Part shown: piece after piece, positions 175 to 63,098 of the stretch
Layout of the letters: the number at the start of each line of letters is the position of its first letter
How positions within the stretch are numbered: the stretch's first letter is position 1
Origin: Klebsiella phage vB_KpnM_KB57
Length of the DNA stretch: 64,000 nucleotides
Sequence record: NC_028659.1
Reading direction: 5' to 3' (one strand)
Notes under the pieces: model-generated
What the model was told of the DNA's origin: nothing
Databases searched by the model: none
Seen by the model: only the letters and a program-made list of their open reading frames with translations
Position numbers and translations under genes: made by a program

Positions 175-183
175 TTAAACTGA

Positions 184-533: not shown

Positions 534-535
534 AT

Positions 536-610: not shown

Positions 611-616
611 ATTGTT

Positions 617-1741: not shown

Positions 1742-1815
1742 AGAATTCTCCTCTCATGAAATTTAAAATTTGAGTTACTTCAAATATTTGCCGACATCCG
1801 TGTCGGCACTACGCA

Positions 1816-2427: not shown

Positions 2428-2458
2428 TAAGTTCTCCTTTGCGTTAAATTAGGTTTAA

Positions 2459-2487
2459 ATACTACACTTACAGATTGTGTTTGTCAA
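2459..2487 (-). promoter_or_regulatory. sigma70-like promoter (TTGACA-N17-TAGTAT) for the 1816-2427 gene
   Basis: Reverse complement reads cTTGACAaacacaatctgtaagtgTAGTAT. RBS and ATG follow ~25 nt downstream. Confidence 0.5.
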
Positions 2488-2605
2488 GCGAATCTTTGAT
2501 TATTTCTTCGGTGGTAGGGTTGTTTTCAAACCATGACCAATAATACCAAAGAACAAGCAGGAAAGAGATCACTGACATGATGATAAAGATAACACCGCCA
2601 CTCAT
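2468..2605 (-). CDS. Possible small membrane protein (45 aa, MSGGVIFIIMSVISFLLVLWYYW...)
   Basis: Short ORF with ATGA start/stop overlap to the 2602-2838 ORF and a hydrophobic helix. Overlaps the promoter above, so uncertain. Confidence 0.3.
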   Translation of the reverse strand: MSGGVIFIIMSVISFLLVLWYYWSWFENNPTTEEIIKDSLDKHNL

Positions 2606-2838
2606 CGTACAACGTCCTTAATGGAGTCACAAACTTCACCAACGACGCCTGCGGTAGGTGATACGATAATCTCATCAGCGGCGTCAAGAACTTCTGCGGC
2701 TACATCTACAAAAGGTTCTGCAACAGTTGCCGTGACAACAACAGCAGTACCAACAATATCGCCAGCCATACGTAACAGGGATCCGAACATTTCGTTCTCC
2801 TTTTGGTTTAGATTTGAAACGAGAGCACTTTCGTCCAT
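2602..2838 (-). CDS. Hypothetical small Gly/Val/Ala-rich protein (78 aa)
   Basis: ORF in the tRNA interval. Composition suggests membrane or structural character. Confidence 0.45.
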   Translation of the reverse strand: MDESALVSNLNQKENEMFGSLLRMAGDIVGTAVVVTATVAEPFVDVAAEVLDAADEIIVSPTAGVVGEVCDSIKDVVR

Positions 2839-2918
2839 TTAAGCTATCGCCCTGTGCCACTACGCGAGCCGGGCCAGCAAGAACGGGAGTCGAACCCGTA
2901 TCTCTCTCATTTCAAACT

Positions 2919-2994
2919 TGGTGGGGCATGAAGGATTCGAACCTTCGACCTTCGGCTTAAGGGGCCGCTACACTAACCGCTGTGTTAATACCCC
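2919..2994 (-). tRNA. tRNA gene. Anticodon loop CCCTTAA (candidate CUU Lys, but position 33 is C). CCA encoded.
   Basis: Acceptor GGGGTAT/ATGCCCC, D-arm ACAC-AGCGGTTA-GTGT, T-arm GAAGG-TTCGAAT-CCTTC. Confidence 0.55.
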
Positions 2995-3055
2995 GAAAAC
3001 ATGCCCGTGTTTTTAAAGACGTTTCACGGAATCGTCATTCCCCATGCCGGAGAAA

Positions 3056-3367
3056 TTACTTTTTCTTCTTACTCTTCGTGGCTACGGTTTCAACAACCTT
3101 AGTTTCCTTTACCTTACCAGCACGTTCACGCTTGGTCTTGCCTGTGCGGATGCGGTAAGAAGCAGAGATAATCTGACCACCTTCAATCCGGGTTTCGGAT
3201 TTATACTCTCCTTTACGGCGATCGAAAACTGATACGGTTTTCTCTACACCACCGAGACGCACATCGTGCGGCGCAGAATGAGTCTGAGTAGACTTCGACT
3301 CAAACTGGAAAGGCTGTTTGATAGCGTCGATGGCGGATACTTTCTTAGCAGTATTTTTCTTAGTCAT
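3056..3367 (-). CDS. Lysine-rich basic protein (103 aa). Possible nucleic-acid-binding or abundant virion/internal protein.
   Basis: ORF with RBS AAGGAG and its own TTGACG-N17-TAGTAT promoter. Very basic C-terminus (KSKKKK). Confidence 0.6.
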   Translation of the reverse strand: MTKKNTAKKVSAIDAIKQPFQFESKSTQTHSAPHDVRLGGVEKTVSVFDRRKGEYKSETRIEGGQIISASYRIRTGKTKRERAGKVKETKVVETVATKSKKKK

Positions 3368-3420
3368 AATTTTCTCCTTTGCATTTTATTTGGGAATTTG
3401 TCCCGTTTATGTTCATGAGG

Positions 3421-3449
3421 ATACTAACTCAATCAGATATCCTCGTCAA
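3421..3449 (-). promoter_or_regulatory. sigma70-like promoter (TTGACG-N17-TAGTAT) for the 3056-3367 gene
   Basis: Reverse complement reads TTGACGaggatatctgattgagtTAGTAT. Confidence 0.5.
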
Positions 3450-3459
3450 CATTTTTAAT

Positions 3460-3537
3460 TGGTGGCCCCCGGAGGATTCGAACCTGCCTACCTCTCGATT
3501 ATGAGTCGATTGCTCATACCTAATGAGCTTGAGGGCT
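3460..3537 (-). tRNA. tRNA with anticodon CAU (Met or lysidine-Ile). CCA encoded.
   Basis: D-arm GCTC-ATTAGGTAT-GAGC, anticodon stem TCGA/TCGA with loop CTCATAA, T-loop TTCGAAT, acceptor GGGGGCC-A-CCA. Confidence 0.55.
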
Positions 3538-3539
3538 TA

Positions 3540-3612
3540 TCGTTCAGAGTGGAATTGAACCACTGACCTTGTCCGTATGAAGAACCTGCTCTACCAACTG
3601 AGCTACTGAACG
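3540..3612 (-). tRNA. tRNA, candidate anticodon CAU (loop TTCATAC). CCA not encoded.
   Basis: Acceptor CGTTCAG/CTGAACG, perfect D-arm GCTC-AGTTGGTA-GAGC, T-arm AGTGG-TTCAATT-CCACT. Confidence 0.5.
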
Positions 3613-3628
3613 CTTGATGTGGTAGATA

Positions 3629-3823
3629 TTATAGATCACCTGTTTCATTGTCAACGTCTTTTTTACTATTACTGCAAATAAAACAGAAAATTTCTCTTTT
3701 AGGACCTATGTACTCCTTCCCGCAGTTAGTACAGGCTGAATGATAATACATACCCCGCAGACTTTCACCAGGCCAGTCTCTTTCAGAGAATGCGATGCAG
3801 TGATTAGAGGTCAGGTCGTTCAT
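3629..3823 (-). CDS. Small Cys-rich zinc-ribbon protein (64 aa)
   Basis: CxxC...CxxC spacing (CTNCGK ... CFICSN). Confidence 0.45.
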   Translation of the reverse strand: MNDLTSNHCIAFSERDWPGESLRGMYYHSACTNCGKEYIGPKREIFCFICSNSKKDVDNETGDL

Positions 3824-6674: not shown

Positions 6675-6735
6675 GTTTTGTTTCTCCTTTGTTTGTTTAA
6701 TAGGGCGATTGTACGCCCACTTATTCATTTGTCAA

Positions 6736-7536
6736 TTAAAAGTTTTCGGTCCAGTCGTGGTACGCGTAGATTTCATCAACGCCGCCTTCGTAGATAACTT
6801 CTTTACCGAAGGAAAAGATACCGTGAGTTACGTAAAGAATAACACGTTTTGCTCCTTTTGCCTTCAATGCTTGTGCCAGGGCGATGAATGTGCGACCACC
6901 ATCGCAGATATCATCGACAATAACACACTCGCGGCCTTCAACATCACCGAAAACAGCAGTCCCGGTAATTTCATTTGTCTTCAGATCGCGCACTTTTCCA
7001 GCTTCCACCAGAGGGAGGCGGAGACGATCGGAAACTTTCTGAGCTTTTTTACGTGCTCCGGCGTCAGGTGCCACGATAACAACATCTTTTCCAACCAGGC
7101 CTTCATGGAATTCCGCAATAAGAGCATCCTGACCACGAATTTTAACGTTGTTAAGCAACGCAGCAGAGACATCGCTGTGCGGATCATCGACAATGACCTT
7201 GTCAAACCCAAGAGAGTTGACGATATTTGCGAAAACTTTGATGGATAACGCTTCACCAGGTTGCATTACGCGGTCCTGACGTGCATATGGGATGTACGGC
7301 AAGTGCAAAGTGAACTGTGCAGTATGATGGAGGCCTTCAAGGCGAGAACATGCATCAACCAACATGGCAAGTGCCATAACATCAGTAGAATTTTTAATTT
7401 TCGCAGTGATGTCTACGAAACCAATACCACCTTTCGGGGTATGCGCCATATCGATTCTAACCTGTTCTTCACCACCTTTGAACGTAAAGTGATCGACAGG
7501 AACTACCAGTTTGTTCAGACGAAGTTCTAAACTCAT
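6736..7536 (-). CDS. prs: Ribose-phosphate pyrophosphokinase (PRPP synthetase)
   Basis: 266 aa with the PRPP-binding signature VIVDDICDGGRTF. Sits immediately upstream of NAMPT in the same orientation. Confidence 0.8.
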   Translation of the reverse strand: MSLELRLNKLVVPVDHFTFKGGEEQVRIDMAHTPKGGIGFVDITAKIKNSTDVMALAMLVDACSRLEGLHHTAQFTLHLPYIPYARQDRVMQPGEALSIKVFANIVNSLGFDKVIVDDPHSDVSAALLNNVKIRGQDALIAEFHEGLVGKDVVIVAPDAGARKKAQKVSDRLRLPLVEAGKVRDLKTNEITGTAVFGDVEGRECVIVDDICDGGRTFIALAQALKAKGAKRVILYVTHGIFSFGKEVIYEGGVDEIYAYHDWTENF

Positions 7537-7907
7537 TTCATATATCCTCTATTAACAATTATGTAATGTCTAGGTTTTGCATTCCCATTTGAATCCTGAA
7601 AACCAGAACGTATCCTTCGAATGTATCCAAGAGACTCCATCTTTGTCAAGAACTCTGATACTTTCGGTTGTGACTTTTCGCTCAACCCAAACAGATGACA
7701 CAAAGATTTTTGAGATGGGTAAAAAACTTCATCGCCACCATCTGGGTTTAGACTCTTGAAGTAATCATACCTCCACCAAAGCTTGATTAATCTTTGCAAA
7801 TCTTGGGGTGAGAGACGATCATCAAAAAGCCACTGCGTCGGAATGGTGACATATGCCCCATCTCTGATATTCACAGTGTTGTCACCAATCTTTATCTCCA
7901 CCACCAT
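7533..7907 (-). CDS. Hypothetical protein, possible winged-helix DNA-binding regulator (124 aa)
   Basis: ATGA overlap with prs. RBS AGGAG. First gene of the leftward operon, adjacent to palindromic operators. Confidence 0.45.
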   Translation of the reverse strand: MVVEIKIGDNTVNIRDGAYVTIPTQWLFDDRLSPQDLQRLIKLWWRYDYFKSLNPDGGDEVFYPSQKSLCHLFGLSEKSQPKVSEFLTKMESLGYIRRIRSGFQDSNGNAKPRHYIIVNRGYMK

Positions 7908-7974
7908 CTCCTATTTATTCCGCGATAGGTATAATTAGAGCCTACACCACTAAATCAATACTGTCAACTCTAAT

Positions 7975-8016
7975 TATTCCCGATTAGGAATATCTAATTA
8001 TTCCCGAAAAGGAATA
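7975..8016. promoter_or_regulatory. Two operator-like palindromes TATTCC-N6-GGAATA (7975-7992 and 7999-8016) in a divergent promoter region
   Basis: Perfect 6-bp inverted-repeat arms, tandem, 24 bp centre to centre. A third palindrome ACTCTATatcATAGAGT lies at ~8104-8122. Confidence 0.45.
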
Positions 8017-8176
8017 CAATACTAACTTATCATTTAAACTAACTTATGATCTTTAAAAACAATAAAACATAAGATCTAAAACAAGATCTTTTACTACAGA
8101 GTATAAATACTCTATATCATAGAGTCGGTGACTCGATGAGTTGGATTATCGTATGAAGAAAAGATGATGTCAAGTG

Positions 8177-8204
8177 TTGACATGAAATTTTTAACGTGTA
8201 GAAT
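8177..8204 (+). promoter_or_regulatory. sigma70-like promoter TTGACA-N16-TAGAAT for the rightward operon
   Basis: TTGACA at 8177-8182, TAGAAT at 8199-8204. RBS AAGGAG and ATG at 8230 follow. Confidence 0.6.
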
Positions 8205-8229
8205 CTAGGTAATGTTAAAGGAGATTGTT

Positions 8230-8553
8230 ATGTTTTCAAGTAAAGAAACAAAAGTTATCGGTGAAATGGTCTGTGGTAAGCCACGACGGAAACCGGAGCA
8301 GACCGATGAAGAGAATACCAAGTTGATGATGATACGTGAAGTGTATCATGAATGTGGTGAAGACCACAATGTGTGCGTGGTATTACCAGATGGTATACCT
8401 GTTGACAAGTTCTTCGATAACTTCTATGCTTCAATAAAGTCGAGACTAGCTCGACGTAATGTGTGTGTAACATATTCAAAGGACTTGACTGTGGAACACA
8501 TCGAGAACAACATTGTTGTGGTGGATCTAAGTGAAATCCATGTAACGCTCTAG
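8230..8553 (+). CDS. Hypothetical early protein (107 aa)
   Basis: Start chosen at the ATG preceded by AAGGAG. Confidence 0.5.
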   Translation: MFSSKETKVIGEMVCGKPRRKPEQTDEENTKLMMIREVYHECGEDHNVCVVLPDGIPVDKFFDNFYASIKSRLARRNVCVTYSKDLTVEHIENNIVVVDLSEIHVTL

Positions 8554-8670
8554 AACGTGTTCTAAGGCGTTTTAATGGTGTGGTAGTACACTTGGGTTAC
8601 CAACCCATATTAAATTAAATACAGGGCCTCCCAGAGGCTCTGAGAGGTATTGTGGAGGATTATTTTGGAT

Positions 8671-8940
8671 ATGAAGAGCATTACCCGTGATGACTCCATC
8701 TATAAAGGTGCTTATCTAGCTCTGAGAGACATCATGAAGTCTATGGAGAAAAAGTATGGTGTGAAACTGTACTTAGATAGCCGGGTAGACTGGGGAAAGA
8801 CATGGATGGATGCTTCAGTTTACATTCATGGTGATAGGCATATCGTTAACCTGGTGTGTATGAAACTTATTGTGTGGCAGCATTACCAGAAAATAAGGGA
8901 TGGAATTCTTTTCGCCTACCCCGCTGAGGATATGAAATGA
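8671..8940 (+). CDS. Hypothetical protein (89 aa)
   Basis: ORF with GGAGG upstream. Confidence 0.45.
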   Translation: MKSITRDDSIYKGAYLALRDIMKSMEKKYGVKLYLDSRVDWGKTWMDASVYIHGDRHIVNLVCMKLIVWQHYQKIRDGILFAYPAEDMK

Positions 8941-9221
8941 AGAAAGATATCAAGAAACCTGTCAAGGAAAAGTTTGATACCTCTGCATTTGTGTTCACAA
9001 CCGATGTGGGTGTGATTAAAGATGCTCTACAGCAACTGCATGAACAGGAGGAAGACCGTGAATCGGAACCACTAACAAGGGATCAGATCTATTGGATGGG
9101 TTGGTGGGAGCTTAACATGCCGGAGGTTGATCGTCGCGGGTTAACACATGTATTGACATGTGCTCAGGAAAATGCTGCACTGGGTCTGTATAAGAAAACT
9201 ACGAAGAGGAAGAAAAAATGA
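8937..9221 (+). CDS. Hypothetical protein (94 aa)
   Basis: ATGA overlap coupling. Confidence 0.45.
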   Translation: MKKDIKKPVKEKFDTSAFVFTTDVGVIKDALQQLHEQEEDRESEPLTRDQIYWMGWWELNMPEVDRRGLTHVLTCAQENAALGLYKKTTKRKKK

Positions 9222-9457
9222 GCAGACTTGCAAAACTAAACAGAAGAAAGAAAATGTTGAAAGAGAAGCAGAAAAACATCACGGCTACTTTCCAAGTATG
9301 CCGAGAGGCTATGAAGGCAAATTTGATAACACCTTCGCAGAGACAGTTGATCCGTGATATTCTTCGTCCTGTACTCCACGACCTTGAAGGTGAAGTTCGT
9401 GATGTTACACTTCATATTCAAGAGGAACTTGTAAAAAGATATCAGGAGGATACATGA
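9218..9457 (+). CDS. Hypothetical protein (79 aa)
   Basis: ATGA overlap coupling. Confidence 0.45.
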   Translation: MSRLAKLNRRKKMLKEKQKNITATFQVCREAMKANLITPSQRQLIRDILRPVLHDLEGEVRDVTLHIQEELVKRYQEDT

Positions 9458-10047
9458 TCGACCACGTCACGTCAGACACGCATTGGTGGCATACCAACAT
9501 CCTTGGTTTCCCATCGTGTGATAAATTCCGTAAGAACCTGTACGGTCCAAAAGAAGACCGTGAAAGTCTGTATGCCATGAATGCAGGCATGATTGAAATC
9601 TGGAATAAGCACGTCAAACCAGATGATGTCGTAGCACATCTTGGTGATTTCGTGATTGCTTACGGACGCTATATTGAGCCTCGTGTTCGTGACATCCTTG
9701 AAAAGATCAACGGAAAGATCATTCTCGTTGGTGGAAATCACGATAACCGTGATACGAAACGTATCTTCCGTGAGTTTGGTCATGAAGTTGTTGATTATAA
9801 AGAGATTGACTTTAGCACAGGGAAAGAGAAGGTGCGGGTATGTATGTCTCACTATCCGTTTGCATCGTGGAACAAAGCACACCACGGGTCAGTTATGTTG
9901 CACGGGCATAGCCACGGCTCCTATACGGCCCCTGGTGGACGTATTCTGGATGTTGGCTGGGATGTACATGGTCGTCCTCTTACGATGCGTGAAGCCGTCC
10001 TGATGTGCCTCAAAAAACCAATCTACACTGCTGACCACGGAGAATAA
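9454..10047 (+). CDS. Calcineurin-like metallophosphoesterase (197 aa). Candidate RNA 2',3'-cyclic phosphodiesterase / 3'-phosphatase.
   Basis: Motifs GDFV (GDxxD), GGNHD (GNHD), HGHSHG (GHxH). Confidence 0.65.
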   Translation: MIDHVTSDTHWWHTNILGFPSCDKFRKNLYGPKEDRESLYAMNAGMIEIWNKHVKPDDVVAHLGDFVIAYGRYIEPRVRDILEKINGKIILVGGNHDNRDTKRIFREFGHEVVDYKEIDFSTGKEKVRVCMSHYPFASWNKAHHGSVMLHGHSHGSYTAPGGRILDVGWDVHGRPLTMREAVLMCLKKPIYTADHGE

Positions 10048-10048
10048 G

Positions 10049-10405
10049 ATGCATAACAAAGAACGGAATTTCATAGCACGTAACACGGCGAAGTCTTTCT
10101 TCGCCACTATTCATATCGCCGGGGACTATACTCAGGCAAAGAATCTTTGTCGTCAGTGGGTTATGCAAGGTGCTTGTGTGCAGATTTCCCCATGCACTTA
10201 TATCTACACAGGCGGTGCGGAAGAGGGTATGACTGTTCGGTTAATGCAGTATCCGCGTTTCCAGAGAACTGAGATTGAAATCCTTGAGATGGCTCGGGAG
10301 TTGGGAACTTACCTCGCTCAAGAGCTTTGCCAGATCAGTTTCAGTATTGAAACACCTTACAATACCACTTATTACCAAGCTGAGGGATACGATAAGCGCT
10401 CATGA
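10049..10405 (+). CDS. Hypothetical protein (118 aa)
   Basis: ORF packed between neighbours. Confidence 0.45.
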   Translation: MHNKERNFIARNTAKSFFATIHIAGDYTQAKNLCRQWVMQGACVQISPCTYIYTGGAEEGMTVRLMQYPRFQRTEIEILEMARELGTYLAQELCQISFSIETPYNTTYYQAEGYDKRS

Positions 10406-10605
10406 AAATACACAACATAACCAAAGACAGGATTCATTTCATAATGGATTCAGGAGCTTACGGATCTATCTCCAAGGCAGATGCCATGAAATTTCTGTAT
10501 GCTTCAAATATTCCTCAGGCAAAGCTTGACTCCCGTTCAGGAGAGTGTATTATTGACTCTATCACGAATATACAAGACCTGTGGGAGATATATCATGAAG
10601 TTTAA
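10402..10605 (+). CDS. Hypothetical protein (67 aa)
   Basis: ATGA overlap. Confidence 0.4.
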   Translation: MKIHNITKDRIHFIMDSGAYGSISKADAMKFLYASNIPQAKLDSRSGECIIDSITNIQDLWEIYHEV

Positions 10606-11557
10606 TGTTGACGATCTGGTCGCTAAAAATCTGGTAACCAAAAAGACTTACACCGAAGGCCCGTTCGCGGGTCTGTCTGTGCTGAAGTATAAGAACAATG
10701 TGTTCTGGGATAACCTGTGGCATACTGACCCACGCCTGCTTGAGTGCCGTGGCATGGTTGTTGATTCAGAAGACAACGTGATTATCTGGCCTTTCACTAA
10801 GATTTTCAACCGCTTCGAGAATGGAACTGACCTTCCTCTTGACAAACCGGTTGTTTGTTCCCGCAAGGTCAATGGTTTTATGGCCACAGCGGCAATACAC
10901 AAAGACAAGCTCCTCGTTTCAACAACAGGGACATTGGATTCTGAGTTTTCAGAATTGGCTCGTAAGTACCTCGAAAAAATGAATTTTGATCTGATTTCTT
11001 TCCGTGAAGATTACACTTTCATTTTCGAAATATGCGATAGCAGCGACCCACATATTGTGGAAGAGAAAGAAGGTGCTTATCTGATTGGTGTCCGTGACCT
11101 CGCTTTAAACGGTGTTATGGTTGAAGAGCACAAACTTGATCGCATCGCTGAAGTGATCGGTGCAAAACGTCCTCAATGGGATGTCCGTGCATTTGGCGAT
11201 GTCGTTGCAGCCAGTCATGCTGTTAGCCACGAAGGTTTTGTTGTCCGAAATATCGGGACAGATGACGAAAATAGCGAACTACTTTTGAAAATCAAGTCCC
11301 CACATTACCTGGCGAAGAAATTCCTGATGCGTGGAGGTGATAACAAGTGGGATATGATCTGGGATAACCCGAAAGAGGCCAAGAAGCGTATTGACGAAGA
11401 GTATTACGAGTTGCTAGACCATATTCGTGAGTATTACTCTAAAGATGTTTGGTCCGCGATGGATTCTCAAAAACGACGTCAGGTTGTTGAAGATTACTTC
11501 GCTATCGAAGACATGTTTGATCGTGGTAGTCGTTTTTATGTTGGGGTTCCAAAATGA
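10595..11557 (+). CDS. ATP-dependent RNA ligase (Rnl-type covalent nucleotidyltransferase, ~320 aa)
   Basis: Nucleotidyltransferase motifs: I KVNG, III FIFEIC, IV EGFVVR, V LLLKIKS. Size fits Rnl2. Confidence 0.6.
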   Translation: MKFNVDDLVAKNLVTKKTYTEGPFAGLSVLKYKNNVFWDNLWHTDPRLLECRGMVVDSEDNVIIWPFTKIFNRFENGTDLPLDKPVVCSRKVNGFMATAAIHKDKLLVSTTGTLDSEFSELARKYLEKMNFDLISFREDYTFIFEICDSSDPHIVEEKEGAYLIGVRDLALNGVMVEEHKLDRIAEVIGAKRPQWDVRAFGDVVAASHAVSHEGFVVRNIGTDDENSELLLKIKSPHYLAKKFLMRGGDNKWDMIWDNPKEAKKRIDEEYYELLDHIREYYSKDVWSAMDSQKRRQVVEDYFAIEDMFDRGSRFYVGVPK

Positions 11558-11898
11558 TTATCTGGCTTGATGACCTGAGAGATCCAAAAGACTACGGGTA
11601 TCCTGATGCCTTGTGGTTCAAGACCTCTCAGAAATTTATGGACTTTCTGGACAACAGGTCAAAGTTCTATCGTTATGTCACAGAGTGGCATTTCGATAAT
11701 GACCTTGGGGAAGGGTCAGAAATGGAGGGCTATGACTGCCTGTTGGCCTTGGAAGAGAAGCTTGTGTATGGAAAACTTCCTGTGCATGATGCTAAACTCT
11801 ATGTCCACACGTCTAACCCTTCTGCGGCACAAAAGTTCATGCTTGCAAAAGAGAGCTTCTTGAAGTATCGTATCACGATCTTAAGAAACAATTACTGA
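11554..11898 (+). CDS. Hypothetical protein (114 aa)
   Basis: ATGA overlap. Confidence 0.45.
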   Translation: MIIWLDDLRDPKDYGYPDALWFKTSQKFMDFLDNRSKFYRYVTEWHFDNDLGEGSEMEGYDCLLALEEKLVYGKLPVHDAKLYVHTSNPSAAQKFMLAKESFLKYRITILRNNY

Positions 11899-11907
11899 GG
11901 AGAAGAG

Positions 11908-12312
11908 ATGGAAAAGACTCTGATTATCCTGCGTGGTGTGTCTGGTGCGGGTAAGTCTACAGTTGCTGAGACAATCGCTGGTAAAGCATGGCCTGTGTTT
12001 GAGGCCGATAAATACCATTATCGGGACGGGGTTTACGACTGGAAGCCTGAAAACATGGCTGTTGCTCATAAGTGGTGTCAAGAACAGGTACGTGAGGCTA
12101 TGGTGTGCCGTATTGCAAAAATTATCGTATCCAACACTTCGACAACAGAGAAGGAACTAAAACCCTACATTGCCCTTGCTGATGAGCACGGATACCAAGT
12201 TATTAGCTTGGTGGTCGAGAATAGGCATGGTAATGATTCTATTCACAATGTTCCGCAGGAAACTCGTGATGCTCAAGAGCTTCGTCTGCGTAACTCATTG
12301 AAATTACAGTAA
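11908..12312 (+). CDS. P-loop polynucleotide 5'-kinase-like protein (134 aa)
   Basis: Walker A GVSGAGKST. Downstream IIVSNTSTTEK resembles the T4 Pnk kinase-domain motif. Confidence 0.5.
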   Translation: MEKTLIILRGVSGAGKSTVAETIAGKAWPVFEADKYHYRDGVYDWKPENMAVAHKWCQEQVREAMVCRIAKIIVSNTSTTEKELKPYIALADEHGYQVISLVVENRHGNDSIHNVPQETRDAQELRLRNSLKLQ

Positions 12313-12320
12313 GGAAAGAT

Positions 12321-12545
12321 ATGTATAAAGGAAATAACCTACGGGAATCGTTCGAAAATTGGTGGGACTCTCTTAGCGATCCTTGGTCAACACCAGAAGC
12401 AAAATCTGCTGCATGGGAAGCCTGGAAGTTTTCAAATTTACGAGTTCTTAATAAAATTCGTTATATGAAAGGTATTACCGAGCGGTGCAATGGTTATAAT
12501 GAGGCTATGAATGAGATAAATAATGTTATAGGGGAAAATCCATGA
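12321..12545 (+). CDS. Hypothetical protein (74 aa)
   Basis: ORF. Confidence 0.4.
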   Translation: MYKGNNLRESFENWWDSLSDPWSTPEAKSAAWEAWKFSNLRVLNKIRYMKGITERCNGYNEAMNEINNVIGENP

Positions 12546-13318
12546 GACGTCTTATCGTTATAAGTGGTGCTGGCTTCTCTGCGGAGAGTGGTGTACGTAC
12601 ATTCCGCACAGATACTGAATCTGGTAAAGCCCTGTGGGATGAATACGACCTTGAGGAGGTTTGTAACATACACGCCTTCCGTGGTAACTTCTACCATAAA
12701 ACGCACATGTTTTATAACAAGCGTCGTGCAGAGTTACCAACGGTACATCCGAATGCGGCGCATCTTCGCGTGGCTGAGTGGTACAGACGTTATCCTGGGC
12801 AGGTTGTTAACATGACAACTAACGTTGATGACCTTCTGGAACGTGCGGGTGTCCCTAAAGAAGATACTCTTTACATCCACGGGTATCTGAAAGAAATTCG
12901 ATACAAGCTCCATGAAGATTCTGAAGAGCAGTTGGTTGACATCGGTTACGATGAGGTAGACCCCGACCAATTTCATTGGTGTAAACCAAACGTAGTTTTC
13001 TTTGGTGAGAATGCTCCGGCCTATGGCCCTATGAATGATACCTTGGAGTCATTGACAAATCAGGATCTTGTAATTGTTGTAGGCTGTTCAAATACAGTTA
13101 TTAACTTCAACTGGGAGTTGTTCCCTGCGGTTATGCGGGGGACCAAAGTTGTTGTTGTTAATCCTGCTATTAGGTATGATGAACAAATGATGTATGAGAA
13201 TGCGGGTGTTCTTGTATATCGTACCGGAGCTGTTGATGCCTTTAATAATCCAGGCCTTATCAAGATAGTTGAGAATCACCTTGAAGGTAAGACACCATTG
13301 CAAAGCAAGGAGAAATAA
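12542..13318 (+). CDS. SIR2-family (sirtuin-like) NAD-dependent protein
   Basis: N-terminal GAGFSAESGVRTFR matches Sir2 GAGIS.ESGIP.FR. HPNAAH (PN.AH) and TTNVDDL (TQNIDGL) motifs present. No obvious CxxC..CxxC zinc ribbon. Confidence 0.65.
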   Translation: MRRLIVISGAGFSAESGVRTFRTDTESGKALWDEYDLEEVCNIHAFRGNFYHKTHMFYNKRRAELPTVHPNAAHLRVAEWYRRYPGQVVNMTTNVDDLLERAGVPKEDTLYIHGYLKEIRYKLHEDSEEQLVDIGYDEVDPDQFHWCKPNVVFFGENAPAYGPMNDTLESLTNQDLVIVVGCSNTVINFNWELFPAVMRGTKVVVVNPAIRYDEQMMYENAGVLVYRTGAVDAFNNPGLIKIVENHLEGKTPLQSKEK

Positions 13319-14631
13319 TGCAACAAGTAAACAGTACACTGTACGCCCTTAATAAAGATGGTTCTTTCCAGTGTTGGAAGGTGTTTATTGCTGGTAATCA
13401 GGTAGTTGTAGAGTTTGGCAAGGTTGGTGGTAAGAAGCAACAAAAGGTTACCACCTGTGAACCGAAGAACGTTGGACGTTCTAACGAAACCACCGCAGAA
13501 CAGCAGGCATTGGCTGAGGCGGTTTCCAAATGGGAGAAACAGGTTCGCCTTGGATATCGTGACGATACAAGTAAGCTTGAGCAGGAAGAGAACTTCTCCC
13601 CAATGCTGGCCCATGATGCAACTAAACGTTCAAAATCAATAGTTTATCCTGCATACGTGCAACCTAAGCTCGATGGTGTACGTGCTCTGGTTACTCTTGA
13701 TGCAGATGGCTTCCCACAATTCAATAGCCGTGGTAACAAACTGTATCCTGTACCGCTTGATTCTGAGTTGTCTGAACAGGTTAAATCCCTTTCTGAGCAT
13801 TCAGGGTTTGACAAATTCGATGGGGAGCTGTACATTCATGGTCTGAGTCTGCAAAAGATTGTCGCTCTTGCTAAGAAGTGGCGTACACCAGAGCAGATCG
13901 AGGAAGAGATTGAAAAGGATTATCAGTCTGACCTGAAGCGCCATCAGAAAGCTATTGACAATGGGGAAGACAGTTGGAAAGATTTCGATGGTGATGTTTA
14001 CTCTGTCGCGATCGAACCAGTTAAAGATGTTGATCGTTATGGCGGCTATTCAAGCCTTGACCTAGAGTACCATATCTTTGACATTCCGTGTTCAAATAAA
14101 CCCTGGATGATTAACGATGGGATTTCAGACTATACAGATAAGGAGTGTCGATACAAAGACCTTATGGACACTGACCACTTCACCTCTGTTATTAAAGCAG
14201 ATAAAATAAATGTGGTCCAAGGTAATGTCTTTGACACTGAGGATGAGGTTAAGCAATCAATCGGACATTTTATGCAGCAAGGCTTTGAGGGTGCTATCAT
14301 CCGAAATTTCAAAGGTGTCTATGAATTTGGTCAGCGATCTTCTGATCTCCAGAAATGGAAACTTTTCCAAGACGGCGAGGCTAAAGTCCTTGATTCTGTG
14401 GAAGATAAGAACGGTGAGGGTGTATTACTCTGCGAAGAGAAAGATGGTACACGTTTCAACTGTAAAATGAAGGGAACCCACGCAGAGAGATCTCAGGAAC
14501 GAATGCTCCTGCTGGTGGGTAAGTTTATTAACTTCACGTTCCAAGCTAGAACTGATGATGGTGTTCCTCAGTTCCCTGTGGGCCAAAGCGTTCGTGAACT
14601 CGATACATTAACATGGGAGCCTGTATACTAA
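13318..14631 (+). CDS. ATP-dependent DNA ligase (437 aa)
   Basis: Motif I PKLDGVRAL (KxDG), size and position within a DNA-metabolism operon. Confidence 0.55.
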   Translation: MQQVNSTLYALNKDGSFQCWKVFIAGNQVVVEFGKVGGKKQQKVTTCEPKNVGRSNETTAEQQALAEAVSKWEKQVRLGYRDDTSKLEQEENFSPMLAHDATKRSKSIVYPAYVQPKLDGVRALVTLDADGFPQFNSRGNKLYPVPLDSELSEQVKSLSEHSGFDKFDGELYIHGLSLQKIVALAKKWRTPEQIEEEIEKDYQSDLKRHQKAIDNGEDSWKDFDGDVYSVAIEPVKDVDRYGGYSSLDLEYHIFDIPCSNKPWMINDGISDYTDKECRYKDLMDTDHFTSVIKADKINVVQGNVFDTEDEVKQSIGHFMQQGFEGAIIRNFKGVYEFGQRSSDLQKWKLFQDGEAKVLDSVEDKNGEGVLLCEEKDGTRFNCKMKGTHAERSQERMLLLVGKFINFTFQARTDDGVPQFPVGQSVRELDTLTWEPVY

Positions 14632-15092
14632 TGGGATTTTATCGTAAAAAACCTGTAGAGGTTGAAGCACATAAGTTTGACGGGTCGTCAACCAGCGCAG
14701 GGCAGATCCATAATTGGATGGAAACTGGTGTGTGGAAGGATTCCGAAATCCACACTCGTGATTGTGGTCGTACTGTAGAGATAAAAACCCCAGAGGGTGT
14801 GGTTGTAGCCTCTGCTGGGGATTATGTAATTAAAGGGGTGGCTGGAGAATTCTATCCTTGCAAATCAGAAATTTTCCATGCAACATATGACCCGCTGGAA
14901 GACACTGATCGGGAACCTGGGAACTACCCAGCTAAAGCAATCCGTAAGGGTGATGAGATCATGTTTTGCGGAAAGGTTTATACCGTAACGAATACTGGTG
15001 CGATGGGGGAGGATGTTATCCTGACTCTCGGTGATGGTTCCCAAATCCCTGTGCGCCCTGATACTCAAATTATCGTAACAAAGGCACAGTAA
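14613..15092 (+). CDS. Hypothetical protein (159 aa)
   Basis: ORF. Confidence 0.45.
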   Translation: MGACILMGFYRKKPVEVEAHKFDGSSTSAGQIHNWMETGVWKDSEIHTRDCGRTVEIKTPEGVVVASAGDYVIKGVAGEFYPCKSEIFHATYDPLEDTDREPGNYPAKAIRKGDEIMFCGKVYTVTNTGAMGEDVILTLGDGSQIPVRPDTQIIVTKAQ

Positions 15093-15093
15093 A

Positions 15094-15444
15094 ATGATCT
15101 GGTATTGGCTGGCGCTACTAGGCGCATCATTTGTAACAGGAGGCGGCATTTATGCCGCTTACAGATTCCGAAAAGATAAGTTGGATGATTTCTTTGACTG
15201 GGTTGCTGGAAAGGTTAAACGTCTGCTGATCATCTGGGTATTTGTTATGGGCCTTGTTACGCTGGCCCTTACTGTCCCATTATGGCATACTATGACTTGT
15301 CAGTTCGACGGCTGGGCCGCGAATACAGAGACCAGTTATTCATGGTACAAATCAACCTGCCTGTATAAAAGCAAGACAGGGGCATGGCTACCTTTAGGTA
15401 TCAGTCGTGATCAACCGCAAGGAGATGGTGATGCATCAAATTAA
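15094..15444 (+). CDS. Membrane protein (116 aa, 2 TM)
   Basis: Two hydrophobic helices. Confidence 0.45.
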   Translation: MIWYWLALLGASFVTGGGIYAAYRFRKDKLDDFFDWVAGKVKRLLIIWVFVMGLVTLALTVPLWHTMTCQFDGWAANTETSYSWYKSTCLYKSKTGAWLPLGISRDQPQGDGDASN

Positions 15445-15685
15445 AGAAAATACTGTAGATTTTGAAGCGCATATCTACGATTCTGCGATGAACGACAACT
15501 ACAGATGGTCAATTCGTCCAGATCCTGATCTGCCAGGTTCAGTTAATCTTTCTTACAATGAGTTAGCTCATTATGACAACCGTTCTCGCCAAGGCTATGA
15601 GCAGCGAGGTATGGTAGGTTTCGATAAAGAAACTTGGGAAAAAATTAAATACGCCATCGATGGTGTTTTTGAAAAAACAATTTAG
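15431..15685 (+). CDS. Hypothetical protein (~84 aa)
   Basis: Start at the Met preceded by GGAG. Confidence 0.4.
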   Translation: MHQIKENTVDFEAHIYDSAMNDNYRWSIRPDPDLPGSVNLSYNELAHYDNRSRQGYEQRGMVGFDKETWEKIKYAIDGVFEKTI

Positions 15686-15693
15686 GAGATTTA

Positions 15694-16359
15694 ATGAAAG
15701 AAGCTTACGAAACCCTCAACTCAATGCTGCGCCCAACCTCCCTTGTTAAGTATGCGAAACATGTGGTAGATTGGAATTCTATCGCAGCTTCTGCAAAGGG
15801 TGAATTTACCCCATTGGAAAAGCAGTGGGAGTTTGTCGGAGAGGAGTTAGAAGAAACCGTTAAGGCATTAGCCGAAAATGACCGTAAGGAAGTCATTGAT
15901 GGGGCATGTGACTTGTTTGTTGTAGCGTCGTATGCTTATTGGTTGAGTAATAACCATTCACTATCCTTAAATTATAACCCTGATCTTAAGTTTTCGCTTG
16001 GTAAAGCTTTGGATGCTTTTGCGAATGAAGACTACGAAGAAATGCTTAAATTGAGCACAGCTTTGTTGTTTGGTATTGATATGCAATTGGATAAGAACAT
16101 GAGTAGCGTTCTTGAGTCTAACGATTCTAAATATCCAACACTTAACGAAGTTCAGTCTTTGCATAAAGATCTTGACTTGGTAAAAGCCCTTGAGGCAGAA
16201 TGCGCCTGTATCGAACGGCGTAACGGTGGACGTTATGAAGGTGTTCATTTCTCGATTGTTGATGGGAATATGAAAGAAGAGCCTCGTGTCGTATTCTTCG
16301 ACAAAGGTGGTAAAATCATGAAGCCTGGAACTTTCAAAAAGCCAAACATTATTGTTTGA
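15694..16359 (+). CDS. MazG-like all-alpha nucleotide pyrophosphohydrolase domain protein (221 aa), tentative
   Basis: EELEE...E..D acidic cluster (VGEELEETVKALAENDRKEVIDGACD) resembling the MazG EExxE..E..D motif. Confidence 0.35.
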   Translation: MKEAYETLNSMLRPTSLVKYAKHVVDWNSIAASAKGEFTPLEKQWEFVGEELEETVKALAENDRKEVIDGACDLFVVASYAYWLSNNHSLSLNYNPDLKFSLGKALDAFANEDYEEMLKLSTALLFGIDMQLDKNMSSVLESNDSKYPTLNEVQSLHKDLDLVKALEAECACIERRNGGRYEGVHFSIVDGNMKEEPRVVFFDKGGKIMKPGTFKKPNIIV

Positions 16360-50932: not shown

Positions 50933-51796
50933 TGTCTGGGTGTTTTGGAGCATTCGTACTGTCTGAGGTGCTAGACGGACAGCTCCGGGCGTCAACTATC
51001 TTTACGGATCTTTACAAAATATCATGGGCAAGGTCGATCCGGTCCCCGGTTCCTCGGGGCCTCTTCAGGAATGAAAGTTACTTGCCGAAACTAATAATAA
51101 TCAAATGTGACAGATAGCAAGCATATGGTTTGCCAGCTTAGAGCACGATTTGCTATTGACTTGTTTATATTTGTGTGAATTACGCCATTTAACATAAAAC
51201 ACGTTATACGCACTAGCTAACAACACATAGCAAGCTAATAATGCCCCAGTGTTACCAGTGTGACGCATAGGCCAGTCGCTTCAGGTCATTACATGGTGTG
51301 ACTGTTACTGTGGTGATAGTTTCATGTGTGATTATTCATGTTTTAGGGTTGTTTTGTGAATGAGACGACGAATGAGAATCATTACTATTTCGATTTCGAA
51401 TTCAATTTCGAAATGAGAATCATTCCGCAAATATAAATATTTTGTAAATTTATAAATAAAAGCTTGACAAGAGAAGAGAATCGTGTTTAGCAATACATAC
51501 TCTTTGAGCATCATTATCATTTGCGACTAATTCCCATCAACCCCGTTACGGACCGGATACCCGGCAATGCTAAAGCATTGAAATAGTTACAATAAGTAAC
51601 TATTTTCTTTATTGCTACGCAAGGGATTGATAGATATTTTCGATAATAAAAACACTTGACAGTTTACACTTCTTCCATGCTCAAAATCAGGCCTTTCCAT
51701 AGGCCATAGGCCCACATTAGCAAGTGATTTATTGCTATTTGTCAATCATTAAATTTCATTTAATCACATAATAATAACGGGTTGTTACCATCACCA

Positions 51797-52000
51797 GCGA
51801 CACAATAACACGGGAGCGATCACGCAGGGCGTGATCGGTGTTATCGTGGCGATGTGATAAAATAAGTTTGCTAATCATTACGGATGTAATGATCTTAATG
51901 ATAACAATTTTCATTCGCTCTTAGGCGTCTACGAGCCACGATAACGCGAACGAAAATGATAAGTATTATCATTTGAGTTACTCCCGTGTTATTGTGTCGC
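51797..52000. repeat. Perfect 20-bp inverted repeat (GCGACACAATAACACGGGAG / CTCCCGTGTTATTGTGTCGC) flanking 164 bp that contains two perfect hairpins (CGATCACGCaggGCGTGATCG, ATCATTACggaGTAATGAT)
   Basis: Seen directly. Flanked by direct repeats CACGAT(A/T)ACGCGAACGA (51937, 52023) and TGATAA(A/G)(A)GT(A)TTATCATTTGAG (51957, 52101). Confidence 0.65.
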
Positions 52001-59886: not shown

Positions 59887-60672
59887 TCAAATGATACGTT
59901 CGAATTTATCGAATCTTTTTGCGGATCTGCCGTGAACGTCGATCACGACGTTGGCGCGTTTACCATCGCATAAGCCGCAATCTAAGCAGCTAATATTGTG
60001 AGTGGTATTAACGCAAGTGATCTCCCCTTCCAGGCGTCGCATGTTGGGAGTTTTCACGCGAAAAGTTTTATAACCCTTGCGCCATGCTGTGATCGCTTGC
60101 TTTTCCGTATCAGCGGAGATCTGGCAAATGGTAGCGATCCGATGGTCAAAATTTTTATGGTGGATCTGGTGAGTGTACCCCGTGTTACCTTGCGTATGGT
60201 TGATCATGTTTTGCCATACCTCAAAAGGGACCGCCGCCGGATCACCGTAGGAACCTAAACGGATATAACGCCCCGCAAAATGTACCAGATCGCGAGAATC
60301 AAGATCTTTATAGTTGCCTTTTTTGTAAGACTTCCAGACTGACAGTGGGGCCTGGTGTAACGTCACATAACAAGCGCCGTTTAAGCTGGTACGATGGGGA
60401 CACATACCGCAAACGGATGAATCAAGTTTTTTCGCGCTTGCTTCCAGTGGGCTAACATCTTCTCGCATGATCCAGGTTTGAACCATGTCGCCTGTTTTAT
60501 CGTTAGCGGTTGACATTGTAGCAATGACCACGATCGGGGCCTTATCCAGAACTGACGGGCCTTTATATAATACATAACCCTTTTTTGCTGTGGATTTTTT
60601 ACCCGGTACACTATGCACGATCTCGGATTCTGAGTTGACAACCAGACCATTATTAAGTTTAAACGTAGACAT
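59887..60672 (-). CDS. Hypothetical Cys-rich protein (261 aa). CGMCPHR ... CLDCGLCDG motifs.
   Basis: Largest ORF of the block. Two Cys clusters suggest metal binding. Confidence 0.5.
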   Translation of the reverse strand: MSTFKLNNGLVVNSESEIVHSVPGKKSTAKKGYVLYKGPSVLDKAPIVVIATMSTANDKTGDMVQTWIMREDVSPLEASAKKLDSSVCGMCPHRTSLNGACYVTLHQAPLSVWKSYKKGNYKDLDSRDLVHFAGRYIRLGSYGDPAAVPFEVWQNMINHTQGNTGYTHQIHHKNFDHRIATICQISADTEKQAITAWRKGYKTFRVKTPNMRRLEGEITCVNTTHNISCLDCGLCDGKRANVVIDVHGRSAKRFDKFERII

Positions 60673-60765
60673 TGCTTTTTACCTCGATTTATCGCGGCCC
60701 TTGCCGCCTGAGAAAACACTTTATCAAAGGCGCTAACTGAAAGCAAGCGCCCAGGATAAAATATT

Positions 60766-60933
60766 TTATTTAGCCAGGGATAAGGTTTTGCCGTGGTTGA
60801 TCCCAGGGATAACCCATTGCCCGGCGCCATCTTTAACAGGTTGACGTAAACGCGCCGCCGTGGTTACCTTGCTGTTAACATTACGGGCAAAAGCGCGGGC
60901 CTGGTCACGGGTAGTAAAAGAAATGTTTTTCAT
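60766..60933 (-). CDS. Small hypothetical protein (55 aa)
   Basis: RBS GAAGAGG. Not in the supplied track. Replaces the spurious overlapping 60381-60830 ORF. Confidence 0.35.
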   Translation of the reverse strand: MKNISFTTRDQARAFARNVNSKVTTAARLRQPVKDGAGQWVIPGINHGKTLSLAK

Positions 60934-61219
60934 GTTGTAGCCTCTTCAGTAGTGTAATTTTGTTTTGCCCTGGATTTTGGAGATCCTCACCTTTCCGGGC
61001 CAGATTGAATCCTCATCACTTGCGCTTTACTCCACGCCCCACTATTTCAACCGGGGGCCTTGGATTCACCCCGCCCCGGTGAGATGAATATTAAGTGATA
61101 GCGATCCCCGCGTCAATCCCCTGGATGAAAATAAATTAAAAATATTTTGTTCGTGTGGGCTTGCGCCCCGGCCTGGTTAGTATACTATATAAGAACGCCC
61201 ACAAATAAAGGTAAACGAA

Positions 61220-61405
61220 ATGGAAAACGGAAAAGTGATAACGAGTGAAACAATGGTTACCCTTTCCACCTGGGAAACGGAAAGCGCAGCGCCCCAGGTT
61301 AGGATCGTGCCTTTACCCTTCGCGTTGAAAATGTATAATGCAGGATTTACCAGGGGGAGAATTGTTGCGGAAAATGGAGAAGTGATCGCGGACTCCTGGG
61401 AGTAA
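61220..61405 (+). CDS. Hypothetical protein (61 aa), plus strand, with the same AAAGGTAAAC RBS as the minus-strand block
   Basis: ATAAAGGTAAACGAAATGG precedes the start. Upstream TATACTAT -10-like element. Confidence 0.45.
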   Translation: MENGKVITSETMVTLSTWETESAAPQVRIVPLPFALKMYNAGFTRGRIVAENGEVIADSWE

Positions 61406-61802
61406 AAAATATTTTATCGCGGGGCTTGCAAACGGCCCCGGCCTGGATTATATTTATCAGACAGAAGAGGAAACGCCACCCCACGGCGAAAAGGCGGGGC
61501 TAACATACCAGGCGCGGAGACCTGGTTGGAAGGTGGATCGCTGGTAGCTCGCCTTGAATAGTTTTGTAAAGAATTGTAAAGACGCTTGCAACCTGGGGCC
61601 GTGTATCCTATATTATACACATAGCGGGAACATTGAAACCGGAGTACAAAACACCGGGGGTACCTGTCATTCAGCAAATGAGAATGATTATCATTCAAAT
61701 AACTAAATAAGAATGCTTATCATTCAACAAAAAATTTAAATATTGACTTCTGATTTTTCATGTGAGATACTGAACGATACCCATAAAAAATTTTTTCGCG
61801 TA

Positions 61803-62010
61803 AGAAAACAAATACGATCTGGAAATTGAGATCTCGATCGAGAACCGGGCCGAAAAATTTTTCTAGAGAAAAAACAATTACGATCTCGATTTTGAAAAAC
61901 CGATCGAGAACCCGGTTGATATAGAGAAAAATTTTTTGATAGTGAGAGCAAATACGTTTTTGAAAACGAAAAGTCGATCGAGAACCCAGAGTTTTCTACC
62001 TGAAAATTTG
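61803..62010. repeat. Three ~70-bp degenerate tandem repeats (iteron-like), each ending in (C/T)CGATCGAGAACC(C/G)
   Basis: Core motifs TACGATCT-GA..TT and CGATCGAGAACC recur at 61834, 61900 and 61973. AT-rich flanks. Confidence 0.6.
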
Positions 62011-62261
62011 AGATATCTTTTTCGCCTATTTGAGATAAATGTCCAATCTTGATGCCAAGATACCTATAGCAATCATACACTTGTGCATCATTTTTCGACA
62101 TAGCTTCCACAAAGGTTTGAGATAATCTACTCCCAAAACTCTTGATTTAAAATTTGCAGGGAAGATGAAATCCGTTTCAAAAACGATTTTGAAAACCATT
62201 TCGAATTTTAAAATATCTTTGGGATATTAAATATCGTACAAATATCCCACAGTTTTGAATC

Positions 62262-63098
62262 TTATCTTGGATTGAAAATATCCTTCCATTTAATAATATC
62301 ATAGGTTGTGCCTGTAGAAATTTCATACATTTGAACCTCATCTGGAGTCGGATTACAAATGTCAATGAAAAATGTGCTCAATACAGAAATCAGGAACCGT
62401 TCTGTCTTTCCTGGGACTGTGTAAACAATACGCATATCCCCGGGAATAGGAGAAAGGACCAAGGAAGTAGGGCCATTCATAAGTGTAACGGTATTATCAG
62501 AAATCTTGATACGACCATCGACACCATACACCAAATCATGAGCAGAAGAATAATGTGCAAGCACCTCTACTACCGGGTTACCGACAAGGTTCACGAGGTA
62601 ATCAAGATACAGGTCTCGCCATCCTCGATTCTGCATCATGTACCGTATATGGGAGCCTCCATCAAACATCTCACCCAGTTGCTCTGCGATCCAGGCAACA
62701 CCATTTGCAATGTCTTCTCTGTTCCAGGTATTGTCGATATCTAAGATATCCTTGCTGAACTTGTTCATGCGCCGCATGGCATTGAGTACATACTCACCTC
62801 TTTCAACAAAGGCACGTTCAGTGTCCTTGGCATAATCGAGAAGCCCTTCAACCTCTGAACCTGTAGCGTATTGCTTAAGGTCATCAAGCACACTTTCCAC
62901 GCTGGCCTTGGCCTGATTGAAAGTCCTCTCATCAGTCTCGTCAGTAGAGAATTCTACACCACCAAGGGCATATACTGCATCAAGGTAAAGCCTTTCAAGG
63001 TCGCCGCGCACGTTAGGAAAATCATAACTAACCTTGTTATGGGGGATAAGTTCGAGAGTGTTTAAAATAGTAGTCATCGTGTAACGTCCTGTAATCAA
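62262..63098 (-). CDS. Hypothetical protein (278 aa)
   Basis: Long ORF. No recognised motif. Confidence 0.55.
   Translation of the reverse strand: MITGRYTMTTILNTLELIPHNKVSYDFPNVRGDLERLYLDAVYALGGVEFSTDETDERTFNQAKASVESVLDDLKQYATGSEVEGLLDYAKDTERAFVERGEYVLNAMRRMNKFSKDILDIDNTWNREDIANGVAWIAEQLGEMFDGGSHIRYMMQNRGWRDLYLDYLVNLVGNPVVEVLAHYSSAHDLVYGVDGRIKISDNTVTLMNGPTSLVLSPIPGDMRIVYTVPGKTERFLISVLSTFFIDICNPTPDEVQMYEISTGTTYDIIKWKDIFNPR

Follow-up and report, generated by a model that had tools for sequence, protein, structure and literature searches.

A conserved non-coding repeat array in rV5-like phages as a possible protein-binding part of a replication origin

Described systems and the array of Klebsiella phage vB_KpnM_KB57

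The subject of this analysis is an array of three direct repeats at 61787-61989 of a 64,000-nucleotide stretch of Klebsiella phage vB_KpnM_KB57 (NC_028659.1); this whole stretch is called the window, and positions are counted in it unless another sequence is named. By sequence identity the phage is assigned to the genus Mydovirus of the Vequintavirinae (rV5-like phages), and positions 61400-62400 share 95-98% identity with Raoultella phage Ro1, with Klebsiella phages KpS8, KPP-1, BIS47 and KNP2, and with about 30 other records. The array forms the third part of an island on the plus strand that runs counter to the surrounding leftward genes. The literature searched contained neither a description of the array nor a transcriptome for these phages.

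Several described systems combine repeats, promoters and AT-rich DNA. The primary origin of phage T7 consists of the tandem promoters phi1.1A and phi1.1B followed by an AT-rich stretch, and oriF and oriG of T4 pair a promoter with a downstream unwinding element. Iteron origins include lambda ori, with four O-binding repeats of 18-19 bp, oriR of P1, and the plasmid oriV regions of RK2, F, R6K and pSC101. Plasmid centromere arrays such as sopC of F are built of 43-bp units in tandem, and every unit contains a short inverted repeat.

Among these systems, the array would work most like the phage origins composed of promoters and AT-rich DNA, with a repeat array added. As in T7 and T4, the tandem promoters of the island aim into an AT-rich stretch free of open reading frames (ORFs). 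The subfamily also has a T7-type replisome: a family A DNA polymerase and a primase-helicase of the T7 gp4 type are reported in the rV5 genome paper (PMC3606486), which fits a T7-style origin of promoter and AT-rich DNA. Unlike their T7 and T4 counterparts, the promoters of the island resemble those of host sigma-70 and have operator palindromes ahead of them, and a conserved three-unit, 70-bp array and families of short repeats stand between promoter and AT-rich DNA.

An earlier note on this DNA had seen in it the classic iteron architecture of a replication origin, or else a partition or regulatory array. With iteron origins the array does share direct repeats of a short core beside an AT-rich region that could serve for unwinding, and in the Certrevirus phage POP15 the cores stand in tandem at 12-13 bp. 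It differs in having three units of 66-75 bp with one 12-13-bp core per unit, instead of 17-22-bp sites spaced by one or two turns of the helix, no adjoining initiator gene, and no enrichment of DnaA or IHF sites; the label of a classic iteron array does not fit. Like F sopC, the array has tandem units of some tens of bp with a short palindromic core (CTCGATCGAG in unit 1). It counts three units versus about twelve in sopC, however, its cores are non-palindromic in Henunavirus, the phages are described as lytic, and no parA/parB-type Pfam family was found in the seven flanking ORFs scanned, so that a partition role received no support.

A non-coding repeat element of the same phage subfamily has been described in the Certrevirus phage phiTE, whose pseudo-ToxI is a repeat non-coding RNA that mimics a type III antitoxin (PMC3475682). 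That element is a near-identical 36-nt repeat in the tRNA region (106,714-106,772 of phiTE, beside tRNA-Tyr); the array lies at another locus and has no sequence similarity to it, and equivalence of the two was rejected because of the different locus. Type III antitoxins consist of near-identical pseudoknot repeats of about 34-45 nt, whereas the units of the array, 66-75 bp long, are 70-76% alike and without conserved structure.

Structure, conservation and coding capacity of the array

The repeat search of the window returned one family of three 63-nt direct repeats, with unit starts 66 and 74 bp apart. The three repeats of about 70 bp announced in the earlier note were thus reproducible, at 70-76% identity and above the limit of 60% that it had set. 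Tandem Repeats Finder, which that note had named as a check, did not report the array even at score 30; this is a matter of sensitivity, because the copies are three in number and near 70% identity, and the separate repeat search recovered all of them. Each unit ends in an exact copy of the 12-mer core CGATCGAGAACC (61835, 61901 and 61975), which has no other exact match in the window. The adjoining AT-rich tract was also borne out: positions 61856-62355 are the lowest-GC 500 bp of the window (32.2% versus a mean of 44.2%), and a 200-bp stretch at 62136 falls to 27.5% GC. The density of A4/T4 tracts peaks at 61.7-62.0 kb with 35 per 300 bp, about seven times the window mean of 5.3. A layout of repeats and spacers of the CRISPR type was rejected, since the conserved blocks do not make up one repeat plus a variable spacer.

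Mydovirus, Avunavirus (Av-05) and Seunavirus (mapped in PVP-SE1, 4MG, GAP31, FENT2, EspYZU14 and NINP13076) all have three units, in the same order and at the same spacings of 67 and about 75 bp. A recognisable version with the core AGATCGAGTACTG is present in Vequintavirus (rV5 and an IMG/VR contig). Henunavirus retains three units, the A/T tracts and the spacing, with CTCAAGTMCC or TTCGAGTCC as its non-palindromic core. In POP15 the A/T tracts are lost, AGAATACGAT and TCGATCGAGAACC are retained, and the tandem duplication of the cores gives an iteron-like appearance. In the phi92-like phage anhysbys (Stephanstirmvirinae) the upstream RNAs and the operator boxes are retained, as are the TTTGAGATA and AAATATC boxes downstream, and other repeats occupy the place of the array. 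Compared between genera, the array is 66-84% identical, the stretch just upstream of it 84-96% and the flanking genes 36-60%; for the non-coding positions 61450-62000 as a whole the value is 66-96%. The conserved blocks of the array are A5T6CG, AAAATACG and TCGATCGAG(A/T)ACC. These comparisons mark the array as a genuine non-coding element under selection, its conservation far exceeding that of the flanking genes.

In pattern scans of IMG/VR, true arrays turned up on Vequintavirinae-like contigs only. No copy was found in complete E. coli genomes, and a scan of 185,579 bacterial and archaeal species, with one genome apiece, yielded chance matches in unrelated high-GC taxa only, none with full units. 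The plasmid collection yielded a single match (CP057073.1, 17373-17455), which covers the operator-box part of the query only. On these scans a host or plasmid copy or mimic was rejected. CP057073.1 is listed as a non-mobilizable 'plasmid' of 137,565 bp from a cattle isolate of E. coli; its size suggests that the genome of an rV5-like phage was submitted as a plasmid, having come from contamination or a carrier state.

That the region encodes the 124-amino-acid (aa) minus strand protein annotated across it (Table 1) is extremely improbable. The frame is open over 124 codons, is annotated in several GenBank records and matches PHROG 25933, but this family was built from those annotations and the match therefore reflects only earlier annotation. 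Annotators disagree, with no such ORF in 4MG or Av-05 and a plus strand ORF called in EspYZU14, and the predicted protein has no Pfam match. Among ten phages the phase and strand of the longest open frame over the array vary, and NINP13076 has no frame that spans it. Unit spacings of 67, 74 and 76 bp are not multiples of three, so the same conserved DNA falls in different frames. Variable sites in nine distinct Mydovirus sequences are distributed 12/8/8 over codon positions 1/2/3, without a third-position excess, and close relatives differ by a 1-bp indel in the T run at 61857. The suspicion in the earlier note that this ORF is spurious was well founded: a coding gene across the array is nearly excluded, and the array is a real, conserved, subfamily-specific, non-coding element mis-annotated as a gene.

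Table 1. Features in and around the array (window positions)
Feature	Position	Strand	Remarks
61-aa ORF	61220-61405	+	Pfam DUF7170, PHROG 4653; sole credible ORF of the gap and sole protein gene of the plus strand island
P1, TTGCAA-N17-TATATT	61426-61454	+	Promoter scan; paralogue of P2 and of the site at ~61160-61188 ahead of the DUF7170 ORF
Structured RNA candidate, ~100 nt	61461-61560	+	After P1, ~300 bp upstream of array; hairpin CGCC/GGCG, loop-to-downstream pseudoknot, long stem
P2, TTGCAA-N17-TATATT	61586-61614	+	Promoter scan; site named in the earlier note
GC-rich conserved element	61620-61672	+	After P2; near-invariant GAG(U)ACAA..CACCG; 15 copies in 14 loci; candidate structured leader
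Palindromic operator-like boxes	61676-61698 (AAATGAGAATGATTATCATTCAA), 61705-61727 (AAATAAGAATGCTTATCATTCAA)		Repeat search; 15/19 and 13/19 to E. coli Fur-box consensus
Spurious ORF, 124 aa	61736-62110	-	Hypothetical protein in KpS8 (gp121), Mydo (Mydo_054) and PVP-SE1 (gp202); PHROG 25933
P3, sigma-70-like TTGACT-N17-GATACT	61743-61771	+	Upstream TG; ends ~15 bp before unit 1
Repeat unit 1 (reference copy)	61787-61849	+	A6T6 tract, AAATACG box, T/A-run segment, core CGATCGAGAACC at 61835-61846; orthologue in five genera
Repeat unit 2	61853-61915	+	76% identity to unit 1; A5T5 tract, AATTACG box, near-palindrome CTCGATTTTGAAAAACCGATCGAG, core 61901-61912
Repeat unit 3	61927-61989	+	70% identity to unit 1; A5T6 tract, AAATACG box, core 61975-61986
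TTTGAGATA boxes	62006-62015, 62028-62037, 62116-62125		Repeat search; recur after array in 4MG, pEa_SNUABM_55 and phi92-like anhysbys
GAAAACCATTTC-type tandem	62167-62205		Tandem Repeats Finder, period 12, 3.2 copies; family recurs in other genera
AAATATC boxes	62207-62255		Repeat search; run ends at stop of 278-aa gene; family recurs in other genera

Proposed transcription into the array and the origin reading

The sites P1, P2 and P3 are consensus matches and are regarded as putative promoters. The promoter named in the earlier note is present as P2, but it is not the one nearest to the array, P3 being closer. In Seunavirus P3 reads TTGACA...TGTGAGAAAAT, with a perfect -35 element and at a constant distance from unit 1, and its -10 columns are invariant in the alignment. 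Starting at 61426, 61586 and 61743, the three plus strand sites aim into an AT-rich stretch without a conserved ORF, as is expected of an origin primed by transcription.

It is tentatively proposed, at a likelihood well below even, that the array is the sequence-specific protein-binding array of a transcription-fed replication origin. The units would be composite protein-binding sites on double-stranded DNA, in each of which an A/T tract is combined with two boxes, AAATACG and the 12-13-bp TCGATCGAGAACC. They would form a nucleoprotein assembly site jointly with the downstream families of short repeats and the AT-richest DNA, and the array would be the factor-binding part of an origin opened or primed by transcription by the host RNA polymerase. 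This transcription would be supplied by P1-P3 in tandem on the plus strand, against the leftward genes and with no ORF downstream. Protein binding to the cores, transcription into the array and a start of replication here are three events that we infer from the arrangement of these elements.

A reading at the level of DNA was preferred because tandem promoters without an ORF point into the AT-richest DNA, because short direct repeats of several families crowd into about 500 bp, and because conservation is at the level of sequence and not of structure. Further reasons were the T7-type replisome of the subfamily and the failure of an earlier search for its origin: in rV5 the origin was not locatable from skew, which showed only shifts linked to transcription (PMC3606486). 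The origin proposed in the earlier note is accordingly a reasonable but unproven idea.

A number of observations weigh against an origin at this site. Experimental origin mapping for these phages was absent from the literature searched, and the skew shifts reported for rV5 lie at 6.4, 13.7, 66.7 and 104-105 kb and not at the homologous 117 kb (PMC3606486). The size and spacing of the repeats are not those of iterons, with units of 63 nt or more, spacings of 66 and 74 bp and a single exact 12-bp core in each. No initiator gene adjoins the array, its neighbours being the DUF7170 protein (61 aa) and a 278-aa protein; genes with HTH_36 winged-helix domains lie elsewhere, at 7533-7907 and, in KpS8, about 4.3 kb rightward. 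DnaA boxes are not enriched in the window (82 matches versus 66 expected), and the island holds one TTATACACA at 61613, overlapping P2, and one site with a single mismatch at 62082. No IHF consensus occurs in 61-63 kb. The A/T tracts show no 10.5-bp phasing and the array no 10-11-bp periodicity, for which reason curvature by phased A tracts was rejected. P3 was not evident by eye in rV5 or POP15, and an unstructured RNA motif would leave an identical pattern of conservation.

The window also contains a second and more classical origin candidate, which likewise counts against the array. Three 24-bp repeats TCTAATTATTCCCGATTAGGAATA are located at 7910-8016 in the gap 7908-8211, within the AT-richest 100-300 bp of the window; each is an inverted repeat, two are exactly adjacent, and AAGATCT motifs lie nearby. 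They adjoin a 124-aa gene (7533-7907, minus strand) with a weak match to the HTH_36 winged helix, the homologue of which is annotated as a replication initiation protein in related records (the source record, OY978796.1, has a register problem). These repeats are a candidate for an alternative origin or for an auto-regulatory operator.

A packaging role was weighed against the location of the genome ends. That the array is a terminase recognition site of the pac or cos type, with three R-like repeats and bends as in lambda cosB, is very improbable. Three repeated boxes with A/T tracts would suit such a site, and a cluster of GATC at the array (6 per 200 bp versus a mean of 1.1) recalls the pac site of P1. 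The cores of Henunavirus lack GATC, however, so that GATC is not required, and a GATC cluster of the Dam/SeqA or P1-pac type was rejected on this ground. In KPP-1, which is about 98% identical at the locus, a 514-bp direct terminal repeat was mapped to 116,316-116,829 by doubled read coverage and PhageTerm (PMC9862379). This repeat corresponds to window positions of about 50974-51488 and places the array about 10.8 kb inside the left end, a distance that argues against a packaging site and largely refutes it. The physical genome ends are probably at about 50974-51488, where the rightward block of genes meets the leftward one. The terminal repeat ends at a TTGACA promoter-like site (~51465).

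Candidate RNA elements, a possible transcription boundary and the surrounding island

The array could instead work as RNA, a reading held to be possible rather than probable. P3, with read-through from P1 and P2, would give an untranslated plus strand transcript whose first ~210 nt comprise the three units; each unit would show the same single-stranded motif (GAUCGAGAACC, AAAUACG), and the transcript would either occupy a nuclease or RNA-binding protein, as a sponge or decoy does, or offer a base-pairing seed in triplicate. The conserved promoter described above, about 15 bp before unit 1 with its perfect -35 in Seunavirus, speaks for such a transcript, as does the precedent of phiTE pseudo-ToxI in the same subfamily (PMC3475682). 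Purines predominate on the plus strand of the array and its GC and AT skews are positive, as in a sense strand; the minimum free energy z-scores of this strand are modest (-0.65 to -3.6), being mildly negative in most phages. Moreover, non-coding transcription of the plus strand is plausible because the island holds at least one structured plus strand RNA.

This RNA candidate, at 61461-61560, is clearly supported by the pair test, in which 98.8% of cells were paired versus at most 51% when the partners were slid, with two compensatory pairs, one of them in the pseudoknot. The hairpin loop pairs with a downstream GGG (AU in Henunavirus), and in 6 of 12 sequences the long stem covaries from AU to GC. 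The element shares 84-96% identity with four other genera and about 60-66% with Henunavirus, and it also occurs in phi92-like phages; no Rfam family matches it, and no ORF lies downstream.

Applied to the array, the same approach gave a null result. By eye, each unit can form two hairpins rich in A-U pairs, two of the Av-05 units having GNRA loops. The RNAalifold energy was ~0 kcal/mol for 24 units; for a 320-nt span from the start of P3 it was -11.6 kcal/mol, to which covariation contributed 0. The sole long-range helix in that span joins core 1 with core 3; it was considered a by-product because the core is palindromic and the helix breaks in Henunavirus, and pairing between cores was rejected. 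For the named hairpins 76.5% of cells were paired, versus 74.5% after shuffling and 75-76% when partners were slid by 1-2 columns, and hairpins in each unit were rejected accordingly, together with the RNAalifold null. The array was judged to be without RNA structure because the same pair test detects structure in the element at 61461-61560. The constraint on it is one of primary sequence in blocks without base-pair covariation, which by this pattern is a signature of protein recognition, on DNA or on unstructured RNA.

Further points against an RNA role are that a terminator scan showed no clear intrinsic terminator past the array, that P3 is not evident in rV5 and POP15 as noted, and that the units, 70-76% alike and each with its own conserved orthologue, are unlike processed repeat RNAs. 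A complementary target was not present in the window, and there was no copy in E. coli genomes, in plasmids (bar the one phage-sized, operator-only match) or in the 185,579 species genomes. Rfam 15 gave no match in the window at gathering score, and nothing credible in 60600-62400 at E values up to 5; ARAGORN placed tRNAs only at 182-3612 of the window. A tRNA-like or other known RNA was rejected on these two negatives, the tRNA labels under the OY978796.1 match stemming from out-of-register annotation. In that record (6724-15725) the GenBank annotation appears shifted relative to its own sequence, and tRNA and NAD-salvage features are placed over DNA that matches 61.4-62.4 kb of the window; those genes correspond to window positions 0.1-7.5 kb.

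The region might also be a transcription boundary, which is considered unlikely. The leftward operon that ends with the 278-aa gene would here meet the rightward transcripts of P1-P3, and the units would hold weak minus strand terminators (an A/U hairpin and a U run) and sites for phage regulators that block or time transcripts. On the minus strand each unit does read as a T-run/A-run hairpin followed by T5-6, and unit 3 of Av-05 is a canonical terminator, AUUUGCUCC-UUAC-GGAGCAAAU-UUUUUU. Operator palindromes stand directly upstream, and beyond the island a leftward, minus strand promoter-like site (61116-61088) would restart leftward transcription. Most of the stems are, however, almost purely A-U, pair no better than the slid controls and are absent in Certrevirus; the terminator scan was null within the array, and the strongly conserved 13-bp core and the AAATACG box are left unexplained. 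What probability remains is assigned to roles not considered here.

The elements of the island follow one another on the plus strand: a promoter-like site at ~61160-61188 (found by eye), the DUF7170 ORF, P1, the structured RNA, an TTGTAAAGA tandem, P2, the GC-rich element, the two palindromic boxes, P3, the array, the TTTGAGATA boxes, the GAAAACCATTTC repeats and the AAATATC boxes. The sites at ~61160-61188, 61426-61454 and 61586-61614 are paralogous and share GCTTGC(A/G)...CCCCGGCCTGG...TATA(C/T)T, the first two being preceded by AAAAATATTTT, which resembles an UP element; the three sites may accordingly have arisen by duplication of a single strong early promoter. A palindromic box always follows the GC-rich GAGACAA(N)CACCG element, of which rV5 has two copies (locus 2319-2387 and 2453-2521) without the P1 RNA. 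At 62040-62100, about 90 bp past unit 3, the motif AATCATAC(A/G)(C/G)TT is kept across genera while the surrounding DNA is not; on the minus strand it reads as TATGAT, a -10-like hexamer (alignment columns ~318-330).

The boxes at 61676-61727 are conserved as far as rV5, phi92-like phages and an Aeromonas phage. A second cluster of palindromic boxes at 51368-51958 contains the best match to the Fur consensus (16/19), and the two clusters share the consensus AAATGAGAATNATTCTCATTT; this second cluster begins inside the terminal repeat and extends about 0.5 kb past it. Sites of at least 14/19 number 19 in the window versus 3.2 expected, and both clusters adjoin plus strand promoter-like sites in ORF-poor DNA. 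Either Fur of the host may bind these boxes, and might be titrated by them, or a phage repressor may use them as operators.

In Mydovirus genomes the genes around the array are small, leftward (minus strand) and of unknown function. The array lies in the gap between the 278-aa gene (62262-63098, minus strand) and a 55-aa gene (60766-60933, minus strand), and the DUF7170 ORF is kept beside the non-coding region in relatives. The 278-aa protein had no match in Pfam or PDB, a profile search returned phage homologues only, and its AlphaFold model (pLDDT, predicted local distance difference test, 47) was unusable. Inserted genes for HNH homing endonucleases interrupt the non-coding island at points that vary with the phage: between the P1 RNA and P2 in Ro1 (locus 3175-3768), and between the AT-rich part and the 278-aa gene in PVP-SE1 (locus 3044-3631) and Hena1 (locus 2035-2601).

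Phages of the rV5 type are widely isolated and are used in therapy or biocontrol against E. coli, Salmonella, Klebsiella, Cronobacter and plant pathogens. The island is the most conserved DNA of its neighbourhood and is partly labelled as a hypothetical protein in GenBank; no longer propagating the array ORF as a gene is an immediate practical gain. A bolder and doubtful proposal is that the ~900-bp island (61.4-62.3 kb) is the unmapped rV5-like origin and of a type not described before. Host RNA polymerase, starting from three operator-controlled promoters in tandem, would transcribe two small conserved RNAs and run into the array, which would bind a phage factor and open the adjoining AT-rich DNA for a T7-type primase-helicase; if this were true, initiation would be linked through the Fur-box-like operators to a repressor of the host or of the phage. 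The island thus offers a concrete candidate for the origin or an early regulatory hub of these phages, along with at least one new structured RNA.

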